Source: a virus. From it: a DNA stretch of 64,000 nt. The DNA lies in IMG/VR virus record IMGVR_UViG_3300028800_000064, positions 33,241 to 97,240 of that record. The stretch is one strand, 5' to 3'. A program made the position numbers and the translations under genes. Positions 32,360 to 49,451 of this stretch are shown here, one piece after another (position 1 is the first letter of the stretch; each line of letters begins with the position of its first letter). The notes beneath the pieces are model-generated. The model was given only the letters and a program-made list of their open reading frames with translations, was not told the DNA's origin and did not search any database.

Positions 32360-33738
32360 ATCTGGACGCCCCAGAAGGCTCGTTGTTGAAATGGTACTTT
32401 CGGCAGCAGCTTCACGCATGACGAATCCGCTGAGATGGTGAACTGGCGTTCGGTTGGGAACTGCACCACGACCGTCAGGTGCTCGGTTAACACATTCATT
32501 TTGGTCACGGTGCCGCAGTATCCTGCCGCTGGCCCGGTTAGAATTTCCACGAAGTCTCCGCAGTGAACTATAGGCACGTTTGGCACATTGCCGGTCTTCA
32601 TCATTTTTTGGATATCCTCGTTGGGCACGGTTACCGCGCGCACGAATCCCCCTTCATCGTTGCACATCGCAGAGAGTTCCGAGATGCCGCGAACGCGGGT
32701 CAGCGCGCGAACCAGAGAGGGCGACGTGCAGCGGGCAAAGAAATAGCCAAACTGTAGTTCGCCTTCTGCGTTCACTGGCGCGAAGATTTGGGCGGCTTTT
32801 TTGCCGAAGAGTCTTTTGCCCTGGGTTTGAAGGATCGGGGTGAGCTGGTCCATGCGGTGCGCCGACGATATCTCCAGCATGCACCACGGCGTGTCCTTCA
32901 ACGTCTCGACCGGGCCGAAGGAGAGTAGCGGCGAAGTCTCTGCCGGGGGCGCGGCGAAGCGCAAGCTCTTAACGCGCCGGAGCCGAGAGACACAGCTCTT
33001 GCTGAGTCCTGCCTTTGTGAGAGACGCCTGATGGGTCAGGTTGCGCAGATAGGCACCCACGGCTACCACTCGAATATCCTTGTCCGCAAGTAGCGCGCTG
33101 ATGGTTGGGCGGAAGATTCGGCGGATCGCCGGAACGGGAGCCTTGACTTTCTTTGCGATGGCCGCGTAGCTTTGAGTCGAGGCGTAGAGCAAGATCATGT
33201 CGGTCAGGCTGCCGTACGGTGTTGTCTCTTTGCCAGATTTTACCAGCAAAGGCCGGATCACCGACGCATCAGGGTTGAGCCCTAGCAGTATGAAAGCACC
33301 CATGGTCTGTTCGATGATGCGCAGGGCTTGCCACGTTCGCGTTTGGATGAACCCGTGGGCTTTGCCGATGAAGGCTTGTGATTTGTGAAGCACGTAGTAC
33401 TCGACGCAAAGCTCTTGGAATTCGGGGCGCAGGGGCTCCAGCAGCTTGTGGAATTTTTCCGGAAAGTCTTTGGCGAACGCGGCGAAACTCAAGAACCCGC
33501 TATTTTCTGGCAGGGCTTCGGCACTGAGAAGCGCGTCCTCTTTGTCGTCTTCGTTTTTGCGCCGATTGAAATCTTCGAAGCTGGCGGCGTTGGCGACGTG
33601 ATCCATATAGCTGGAAACACCTTGCGTGTTGTCGCCGCGCATGCGCGCTTGGCCGCGCAACCACCGGCCACCGAAGTGTCCATAGCTGCGCCGACCGAGA
33701 CTACAAGGATTGCGCAAACCGCACGATTTGCTTTTCAT
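32356..33738 (-). CDS. Transcription regulator: sigma region-4-like HTH, second HTH, NusG NGN and KOW
   Basis: LRPEFQELCVEYYVLHKSQAFIG..IQTRTWQ; PWCML..IFAP..FGYFF..RGISEL..VPNEDI; GDFVEILTGPAAGYCGTV. Confidence 0.75.
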   Translation of the reverse strand: MKSKSCGLRNPCSLGRRSYGHFGGRWLRGQARMRGDNTQGVSSYMDHVANAASFEDFNRRKNEDDKEDALLSAEALPENSGFLSFAAFAKDFPEKFHKLLEPLRPEFQELCVEYYVLHKSQAFIGKAHGFIQTRTWQALRIIEQTMGAFILLGLNPDASVIRPLLVKSGKETTPYGSLTDMILLYASTQSYAAIAKKVKAPVPAIRRIFRPTISALLADKDIRVVAVGAYLRNLTHQASLTKAGLSKSCVSRLRRVKSLRFAAPPAETSPLLSFGPVETLKDTPWCMLEISSAHRMDQLTPILQTQGKRLFGKKAAQIFAPVNAEGELQFGYFFARCTSPSLVRALTRVRGISELSAMCNDEGGFVRAVTVPNEDIQKMMKTGNVPNVPIVHCGDFVEILTGPAAGYCGTVTKMNVLTEHLTVVVQFPTERQFTISADSSCVKLLPKVPFQQRAFWGVQI

Positions 33739-47147: not shown

Positions 47148-47155
47148 CGCTCGTG

Positions 47156-47203
47156 GAGGATGACCACGAAAACGTTGCAAACCAAGCTCACAATGTCATT
47201 CTC
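47156..47203 (+). ncRNA. Single TIGR-like guide unit in the leader
   Basis: GAGGATGA-CCA-cgaaaacgt-TG-caaa-CCA-agctcacaa-TG-TCATTCTC. Confidence 0.8.
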
Positions 47204-47226
47204 ACACTTGAAACCCGGAGATCAAC

Positions 47227-48258
47227 ATGAACACGAAGATGATCGCGCTTCACAAGACCTTCGATAAAGATGCTGCAGGAAAACGCAACCTTGTAGTCCA
47301 CATTTCAGATGGTGTTAATCACGAGTTCCTCCCCCCAAAGAAATTTGAGAACTTTATTGCGAAGCTGCCTGCCACGACGCTGATTCGCGCGACCGCAGTA
47401 AACGCTACGGACGGAGTGCTACTAGACCTTGCGGAGCGCGGTAACAAAATTGTGTACGCCTACTGGCATACCACTGGACTCGAATCTGGCCTGGACCCGG
47501 CAGACCTTGTATCCCAGTACGCATTGCTGCCCGAGGAGATGTTTCGTACGTTCAAGCCCCGCGCGGATATCGCGAATTTGAAGCAGGTTCTGTCGCTGCG
47601 GAACGCTATCGTTCAGTTTGCTGGAGACGCCACACGGCGCTTGAAGCAATCGGGTCGCGACATCGGTGATCCTGAAATGGAGATCGCGGAAGATGCGATA
47701 ACATCTATCCGCAAGGGTATCGTGCTGGAAGATGGGACCCCGCTGGATAAGCACGTACAAAAGTTGGCGGAGCGGATTCCGGAGTGCCGGTTGTTCAAAC
47801 AAATTACACACATCCAGGACTCATGGATCATGGCAGCTTCGTTTGTGGCGTACTCAGGTGGCTTCGACCGCTTCGAGGACGTTGCTTCCCTGTGGCACTA
47901 TTTTGGGCAGCATGTAGGAGCCGATGGCCGCGCGCCGCGCCGTCGCAAGGGTACCAACATCGACTGGAATCCGCGCGGGCGCACCATTTTGTATCAGCTC
48001 GGCTCCACGATCATCAAGAATCGTAAGAACCCATGGCGCGACTTTTTCGATCAAGCTCGGGCCATCGAGATCGCCGCGCACGACGTGAAGCATCCGGGAT
48101 GCAAAACCAAAGACGGGCACTGCACCATGATGGCATCTCGAAAGATGGTCAAGGAAATCGTCAAGCGTTTCTTCCTGGCCGAAAAGGGAATTCAGTACCA
48201 AGAGGATCACAACCCACTAAGCCACCAGGACAGTGAACTCCAACTTGTCAATGCTTAG
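47227..48258 (+). CDS. Tas-like Nop-domain (IS110-related) RNA-guided protein
   Basis: DRFEDVASLWHYFG..PRRRKG..WNPRGRTILYQLG..H..A.RKMVK; flanked by guide-like units. Confidence 0.85.
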   Translation: MNTKMIALHKTFDKDAAGKRNLVVHISDGVNHEFLPPKKFENFIAKLPATTLIRATAVNATDGVLLDLAERGNKIVYAYWHTTGLESGLDPADLVSQYALLPEEMFRTFKPRADIANLKQVLSLRNAIVQFAGDATRRLKQSGRDIGDPEMEIAEDAITSIRKGIVLEDGTPLDKHVQKLAERIPECRLFKQITHIQDSWIMAASFVAYSGGFDRFEDVASLWHYFGQHVGADGRAPRRRKGTNIDWNPRGRTILYQLGSTIIKNRKNPWRDFFDQARAIEIAAHDVKHPGCKTKDGHCTMMASRKMVKEIVKRFFLAEKGIQYQEDHNPLSHQDSELQLVNA

Positions 48259-48636
48259 GGTTGTGCGTGGGTGGCCATTGTACGATTGAAAACCAGTGAT
48301 CCATTGCCACCCACAAAATTTTATGACGGCCACCAGCTACGTGAAAACCACAACCGCAATGCCGTCAATAGTTTCGGAGCCACGGTACCGATGAAAACCA
48401 GAGTGTTTTTGCTCCGAGAAATTTACACAACGGCCACTGGCGACATGAAAACCACGGAAAGCGTGCCGTTTGCGAGTTTGGAAGCCAAATGCTCCTTGAA
48501 AACCATGGCACCCATGCTTCCAAAAAATTCAAGAGTTTGGCGCGGCCAATGAAACTATGAAAACCATCGACGGGGTGCCGCGCCTTGCAATTTCGAGGCC
48601 ACTGACGGTTTGAAAACCAAGGTCGGAATGCTTCGA
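48217..48636 (+). repeat. TIGR-like stem-loop array 1 (8 units)
   Basis: Units start at about 48217, 48267, 48324, 48372, 48429, 48477, 48539, 48593; each stem-CCA-N9-TG-N4-CCA-N9-TG-stem. Confidence 0.92.
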
Positions 48637-48654
48637 TAAAAAGGAGAAACATCA

Positions 48655-49149
48655 ATGGCTACGCTGACAGAGGTGAAGCAGCAACGCAAGGCGTTCGACG
48701 GTCGAGACACCTACGAACGTTTTACAGCTTACTGCAAAAAGCAAGACCTGGAGCCGAACAAGAAAGCGTTGATGGCCTGGGATGAACACCACAACCACTT
48801 CGCAATTCGGGACAACTACGGCACTCAAAAAGATGTGTATGCGCTGGGACTCCTGACGCTATACGAACGGTTCCTTGTGAACAACTGTATGCGTATTCCG
48901 AATGGCGCGCCGGTGAAACTTCCTAACGGGGCCACGTATCAGCCGACAGTGACTGAGCATCGGCATGTCGGTGGGCGCGCAACCCAGTTGCGGGATATCA
49001 CCGCGCAGCAGCTAAACGTGATCCGCGACCAATTCCGCACCGAGCTGCGACAACTCCTACGCACCCAGAAGTTTTTCAATCTGTCCGCTGGGGATATTCG
49101 CGGGATCGTTGCCGATGTGCTGGAGGAAACGCTAGCGGAGAAAGAATAG
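48655..49149 (+). CDS. Hypothetical protein embedded in the array
   Basis: AAGGAG RBS; 164-aa ORF between the two array blocks. Confidence 0.75.
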   Translation: MATLTEVKQQRKAFDGRDTYERFTAYCKKQDLEPNKKALMAWDEHHNHFAIRDNYGTQKDVYALGLLTLYERFLVNNCMRIPNGAPVKLPNGATYQPTVTEHRHVGGRATQLRDITAQQLNVIRDQFRTELRQLLRTQKFFNLSAGDIRGIVADVLEETLAEKE

Positions 49150-49157
49150 CTGAGACT

Positions 49158-49451
49158 GGGAGCGGCCACGCACCGATTGAAAACCAAGATACACATGCCG
49201 CTCCTATAAAATTTTCGAGGCCATGGAACTCTTGAAAACCACGCGGTTCGTGCCTCGATTCGATTTTAGGTGCGTCCAACAGAACATTGAAACCCACTGT
49301 GAGCATGACGCACCTACTAGTTTTCGGGACCACCGATTGAATGAAGCCCATAAGTGCGTTGTCCCGAACCGGATTGAGACACTGTCACAGCGGTGTCTCT
49401 TACAACTTCAAGGCCATTGGCGCTGTGCAGCCCATAAAGCACATGCCTTGA
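49158..49451 (+). repeat. TIGR-like stem-loop array 2 (5 units plus one spacer-less hairpin)
   Basis: Units start at about 49158, 49215, 49267, 49323, 49408. Confidence 0.9.

Follow-up and report, generated by a model that had tools for sequence, protein, structure and literature searches.

TasR proteins that have lost their nuclease activity have already been described. Inactive TasR was predicted by Faure et al. 2025 (PMC12045711), and Xu et al. 2026 (bioRxiv 10.64898/2026.09.09.750476) reported that PateTasR and CsTasR, whose RuvC sites are substituted (R91 in the pocket of the former, R8 and V126 in the latter), do not cleave. According to the same preprint, CsTasR and MbTasA repress a reporter reversibly, and the dead RuvC domain of inactive TasR still contacts DNA as well as box D of the RNA. 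Among active proteins the closest reference is TaTasR, for which PMC12045711 describes UG as box D and CCA as box C, and in which the D11A substitution abolishes cleavage. An "intermediate" array type, with a dual-repeat-like loop on stem-loop units, is also mentioned by Faure et al. 2025 (PMC12045711).

The protein described here is one more member of this published class of dead TasR. Its gene lies in a viral DNA window of 64,000 nucleotides, positions 33,241 to 97,240 of the 97,240-bp contig IMGVR_UViG_3300028800_000064 (IMG/VR). On the + strand, the tas gene (47227..48258, from the ORF list) encodes a TasR-type protein of 343 amino acids, similar in size to PateTasR with 329 amino acids. 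Like PateTasR and CsTasR, it is phage-borne, and its N-terminal RuvC fold lacks the catalytic acids and precedes a coiled coil and then the Nop domain; the three also share stem-loop tigRNA units of ~50-55 nt, each with two spacers of 9 nt, and an arginine at or beside a catalytic position (R8 in CsTasR, R91 in PateTasR). Box C reads CCA here, as in TaTasR, whereas CUU is reported for PateTasR. The loop also differs from that of PateTasR and CsTasR: it is A-rich and conserved, a 9-mer reading UGAAAACCA that is akin to the loop repeat of dual-repeat arrays, which makes this the "intermediate" array type of Faure et al. 2025. Going by published descriptions, the clade-specific residues H9, R54/T56 and W80-H81 set Tas apart from both. 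Matching the PateTasR contact residues to Tas by published numbering gave no consistent register. Overall, we favour, with a probability of roughly 0.75, the reading that Tas carries a RuvC domain devoid of metal-binding acids and that its guide-bound complex acts as a roadblock or transcriptional repressor.

Three segments make up the protein: an N-terminal RuvC-like domain of the RNase H fold (residues 1 to ~111, 47227..47560; AF2, Foldseek and hhalign), coiled-coil helices (residues 113-164, 47563..47718) and a C-terminal RNA-binding Nop domain (residues ~171-320, 47737..48186; HMMER match to 9mty_A residues 139-294 and to TasH 21kl_A). The coiled coil consists of AF2 helices 113-146 and 149-164, mostly with pLDDT above 80. 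A single-sequence search of the PDB matched TaTasR (PDB 9mty_A) to the C-terminal half of Tas with an E-value of 2.5e-11; with a 20-sequence family profile, PDB sequences 9mty_A and TasH 21kl_A were matched at 2.1e-25 and 5.1e-10, respectively, and a search with the full family profile aligned the Nop part alone. In Pfam, PF02371 scored 15.5 bits, below its cutoff of 21.3 bits, and PF01548 (DEDD_Tnp_IS110) was matched neither by Tas nor by 20 family members, so a plain HMM search cannot see the N-terminal domain. PHROG 4285, a "transposase" family, matched Tas with an E-value of 2e-14. That tas is a real gene follows from 22 close homologues and from 62 cluster representatives matching over the full length in an exhaustive profile search (E<=1e-30); beyond these representatives, matching proteins align in the Nop part only. 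The whole-chain AF2 model built from the family alignment reached a pLDDT of 87.7. In Foldseek it matched TaTasR (9mty) over the full length (E 2.7e-12) and the IS621 recombinase (8wt6/8wt9; E ~3e-9), with TasH aligned over the Nop part alone. Tas shares with IS110/IS621 (8WT6, 8WT9) the succession of a RuvC-like domain and a Nop-related RNA-binding domain, but unlike these it lacks the DEDD tetrad, IS ends and bridge RNA and has a guide array of 14 units. The identity of Tas as an IS110 recombinase was considered and rejected, as there is no DEDD, no match at the Pfam level and no IS context. With a Nop domain, a coiled coil, an adjacent array and the RuvC fold, Tas has the features of a TasR of stem-loop TIGR systems.

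The original prediction had singled out about 110 extra residues ahead of the coiled coil as a RuvC derivative and had proposed structure prediction and comparison with TasR and IS110. AF2 models confirm the domain, and its RuvC-derived fold is supported by Foldseek and hhalign comparisons. The isolated N-domain (residues 1-113), modelled from 28 N-domain sequences, had a pLDDT of 95.9, and it is a separate unit, with the long coiled-coil helix beginning at residue 113. Both models contain the strands b1 (5-14), b2 (20-27) and b3 (32-35), helix a1 (37-46), strand b4 (52-55), helix a2 (63-70), strand b5 (74-77), a short helix (80-83) and a helix at 91-99; in the models, this order of elements is that of RNase H and RuvC. 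A Foldseek search with the N-domain alone returned TaTasR 9MTY as the top match, with a probability of 0.99-1.0, a TMq of 0.52-0.59 and a weak E-value of 0.013, and the next ~45 matches were all RNase H-like (Argonaute PIWI, Mos1/Metnase, EndoV, the C-terminal half of UvrC, integrase and RNase H1). TaTasR is thereby the best match in sequence and structure for the whole of Tas, and the top structural match for the isolated N-domain.

Evidence for common ancestry comes from profile alignment to eight more distant TasR with an evident active site, in which the motifs IDW(A/S)H, TENMP and EKTD(E/V)ND can be read. Aligned by hhalign over the full length, the 64-member Tas clade and the eight active TasR gave an E-value of 1.5e-51. 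The N-domains on their own gave a probability of 82%, an E-value of 1e-5 and a score of 34.2, compared with 9.5 for the reversed template and 7.5-18.6 for 30 column shuffles. Scores of shuffled profiles thus stayed at or below 18.6, indicating that the N-domain is homologous to the TasR RuvC domain beyond mere similarity of fold. These data support the N-terminal ~110 residues being a RuvC domain of common ancestry with the nuclease domain of active TasR. The domain remains under constraint instead of decaying, as its mean pairwise identity of 33% stands between those of the coiled coil (27%) and the Nop domain (42%). We also observed an extra helix between b3 and b4 (residues 37-46, 47335-47364) that is missing from the active TasR relatives, TaTasR included; hhalign opens an 8-residue gap there, and the dead N-domain is accordingly slightly larger than the active RuvC domain.

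The same alignment locates the former catalytic positions. The original prediction read the first strand, MIALH (residues 5-9), as lacking the catalytic aspartate and the later strand, LIRAT (residues 52-56), as lacking the glutamate, and both readings hold in the profile alignment: H9 (codon 47251-47253) aligns with the first catalytic aspartate, D11 in TaTasR, and T56 with the glutamate of TENMP, while R54 (codon 47386-47388) precedes T56 by two residues on that strand. The suggestion that DPAD (residues 90-93, 47494-47505) is a catalytic remnant finds no support in this alignment. L89 aligns with the third position, aspartate or histidine (GIEKGL here against GLEKTD), and A92 with the fourth catalytic aspartate, so that D90 and D93 would then flank the catalytic positions rather than occupy them. 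Were the register offset by one residue, D93 would sit at the fourth position; the choices of L89/A92 over D90/D93 and of T56 over R54 are set by the profile alignment alone. TaTasR keeps four acids and cuts both strands, whereas the corresponding residues of Tas are H/T/L/A.

These substitutions are common to the clade. Among its 64 members, histidine occupies position 9 in 63 and position 81 in 63, arginine position 54 in 59, threonine position 56 in 55, tryptophan position 80 in 60 and leucine position 89 in 50. Position 90 is variable (P 15, D 11, E 11, S 11), and positions 92 (E 41, A 10, D 6) and 93 (E 35, D 11, A 6) are each acidic in ~73% of members. Aspartate was found at position 9 in none of the 64; the first aspartate and the glutamate are missing in essentially all of them, none has an acidic tetrad of the DEDD or DEHD type, and no acid is conserved at catalytic positions 1-3. 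The predicted loss of the catalytic acids is therefore clade-wide and not peculiar to the protein in the window. With the intact tetrad missing, Tas falls, as judged by sequence, in the inactive TasR subclass. Only four N-domain columns are conserved at 90% or more (n=64), namely H9, R54, W80 and H81. They map to b1, to b4 and to just after b5 in the models, from which we infer a placement like that of an RNase H-like active site.

A pattern scan identified 14 TIGR units on the tas strand with the layout variable stem-CCA-N9-TG-N4-CCA-N9-TG-complementary stem; in the RNA, a variable stem leads to CCA, the 9-nt spacer A, UGAAAACCA, the 9-nt spacer B, UG and the complementary stem. The + strand of the 97,240-bp contig has no further such units, and the - strand gave two looser matches only. 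All units are on the + strand: one in the tas leader (47164..47195; CCA-N9-TGCAAACCA-N9-TG, flanking stem ~47153-47206, fold z -2.0), one over the last tas codons with a stem extending beyond the stop codon (48222..48253; -20.8 kcal/mol, z -2.6), seven stem-loop units at 48267..48640 (pattern scan and folding) and five more at 49166..49445 (pattern scan). In RNA folding, most of the units tested formed a stem that closes off a large internal loop. The variable palindromic stems identify the array as being of the stem-loop type, and because stems and spacers vary between units, Tandem Repeats Finder called nothing in it. The array resembles that of TaTasR in its UG and CCA boxes and its A-rich loop, UGAAAACCA having the appearance of a loop repeat of the TaTasR type; it differs in that the TaTasR array has fixed edge repeats where this one has variable palindromic stems. 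Three related viral contigs, L001-L003 (32-44% protein identity), show the same unit grammar around tas.

A self-target search took each of the 14 guides in four arrangements of its spacers and covered the two strands of the whole 97,240-bp contig; it gave no match with up to 2 mismatches, and matches at 3-4 mismatches were as numerous as in shuffled controls. Among the phage-contig sequences, none emerged as a repressor operator for any of the 14 guides; presumably, the guides target the host or competing elements. Separately, the related contigs offer a view of spacer turnover. Between L001:3950-5250 and L002:3950-5250 (alignment A3), the sequence outside the spacers, comprising stems, linkers and the embedded partner gene, is ~86% identical, whereas identity at the 9-nt spacer positions drops to 32%, close to the random level; a single unit (L001 4382, L002 4381) has kept both spacers with one change each. 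Comparison of scaffold and spacers thus indicates that spacers were replaced inside a conserved scaffold, an observation that bears on how TIGR arrays acquire spacers.

Two of the units lie in the tas leader or over its last codons. The unit at 48222-48253 falls in the disordered, low-pLDDT tail of Tas (residues 331-343), which agrees with a comment in the literature that disordered regions are where intragenic tigRNAs map. Guide maturation could be coupled to tas expression by processing or binding at this unit and at the leader unit (47164-47195). The tail, ~23 residues after the last Nop helix (residues 321-343, 48187-48255; pLDDT below 70), also contains a motif (Y/F)xxxH(N)P, with tyrosine or phenylalanine at Y324 in 41 of 64 members, often phenylalanine, and H328 in 34 of 64. 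The motif recalls the Y/H dyad that processes tigRNA in dual-repeat Tas, a dyad that stem-loop clades are said to lack. From Y to H the spacing is 4 in Tas, and 7 in SpTasH (Y289/H296; PMC13421893).

In order to rationalise these features on the molecular level, we propose that Tas is most likely an RNA-guided DNA binder that does not cut its target, by analogy with the characterised inactive proteins. In the dead RuvC domain, the first aspartate would have been replaced by the near-invariant H9, the glutamate by T56 near the near-invariant R54, the third residue by L89 and the fourth by alanine here and by glutamate in most relatives. Loss of the metal-binding acids would leave Tas incapable of canonical two-metal DNA cleavage. 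The protein would dimerise through its coiled coil, a role we infer from TaTasR and Nop5 (PMC12045711), and the Nop domains would bind one stem-loop tigRNA whose CCA box C and UG box D lie at the stem and at the UGAAAACCA loop. Each of its two 9-nt spacers would then base-pair with a different strand of an 18-bp target, following the model put forward for relatives in PMC12045711. The complex would remain on the DNA and block transcription, with the dead RuvC domain serving as a scaffold that contacts DNA and RNA. Analogy with CsTasR, PateTasR and TasA suggests the function of a repressor or roadblock.

One feature is left unexplained by this mechanism, namely the conservation of the His/Arg/Trp-His pocket. 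The four best-conserved N-domain residues lie at or beside the former active site, where a pure scaffold role would not obviously need them. The pocket formed by H9, R54, T56, W80 and H81 might therefore have been rebuilt instead of being a relic, for metal-independent maturation of tigRNA or for docking of a partner, although we give this little credence.

A docking role would draw in a 164-amino-acid ORF that splits the array (48655..49149, + strand, from the ORF list), whose product is a candidate partner or auxiliary protein; the dead RuvC domain would serve as the docking surface for it as the protein supplying an effector. The gene is positioned between the two sub-arrays, and homologues with 34-35% identity occupy the same place in L001 (4529-4795) and L002 (4527-4787). 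In addition, extended flanking sequence with downstream CDSs is reported to improve tigRNA processing (bioRxiv 10.64898/2026.09.09.750476). However, tblastn detected no homologue in L003, the 164-aa protein matched no Pfam family, and single-protein dead TasR and TasA are enough for repression in E. coli (same preprint). We regard such a partnership as unlikely.

Sites composed of histidine and arginine are typical of metal-independent ribonucleases, and H9, H81, R54 and T56 could accordingly form a rebuilt ribonuclease that matures stem-loop tigRNAs, with the action on DNA still limited to binding. In keeping with this idea, the sole N-domain columns conserved at 90% or more lie at or next to catalytic positions, and the RuvC domain of PateTasR touches box D of the tigRNA (bioRxiv 10.64898/2026.09.09.750476). 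Several observations argue against it: the preprint attributes processing to a host RNase on the grounds that it occurs in E. coli, the cut in the tigRNA falls at the variable stem bases, a long way from the protein (both bioRxiv 10.64898/2026.09.09.750476), and CsTasR (R8/V126) and PateTasR (R91) have other residues at these positions. The conserved arginine and histidines may just plug the pocket or hold an interdomain interface, as R91 of PateTasR does. By the simpler account drawn from PateTasR, the arginine would plug the pocket and the other residues would hold an interdomain or RNA interface. We therefore consider a ribonuclease of this kind distinctly doubtful. Finally, DNA cutting through a non-canonical site, built from histidines and the remaining acid (mostly E92/E93, D93 here), is very improbable despite an acid at position 92 or 93 in ~73% of members and a histidine at the third position of the DEHD-type active relatives P0081 and P0112, because loss of the first aspartate alone, as in D11A, abolishes TaTasR cleavage (PMC12045711), both that aspartate and the glutamate are gone in essentially all 64 members, and neither of the two TasR with substituted sites that have been tested cleaves (bioRxiv 10.64898/2026.09.09.750476).

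Guided binding without cleavage thus remains the preferred reading, and it has parallels outside the Tas proteins. TldR repressors, which derive from TnpB, are naturally nuclease-dead and RNA-guided. Both they and Cas12k, cited in bioRxiv 10.64898/2026.09.09.750476 as a naturally nuclease-dead RNA-guided binder, resemble Tas in keeping the RuvC fold, losing catalytic residues and using RNA-guided DNA binding for recruitment or repression; their guide-RNA architectures and protein families are unrelated, so the analogy is one of mechanism only.

In a Nop-domain tree of 149 proteins, the Tas clade is monophyletic (70 tips, support 0.71) and active TasR form a separate clade (support 0.97). As the midpoint root falls between the Tas clade and the rest, no sister group can be named. 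In the small clade of active TasR relatives, the DW, EN and TD motifs are gone from P0143, a loss that would represent a separate inactivation event. Histidine takes the third catalytic position in two other members, P0081 and P0112.

The locus adds to the family a phage clade of ~60 sequence clusters that combines the H9/R54/W80-H81 pocket with TaTasR-type CCA and UG boxes and stem-loop guides. Naturally nuclease-dead RNA-guided DNA binders that are very small (343 aa) and PAM-free have practical appeal as programmable repressors, and they bear on how phages use TIGR-Tas systems against hosts or rival elements.
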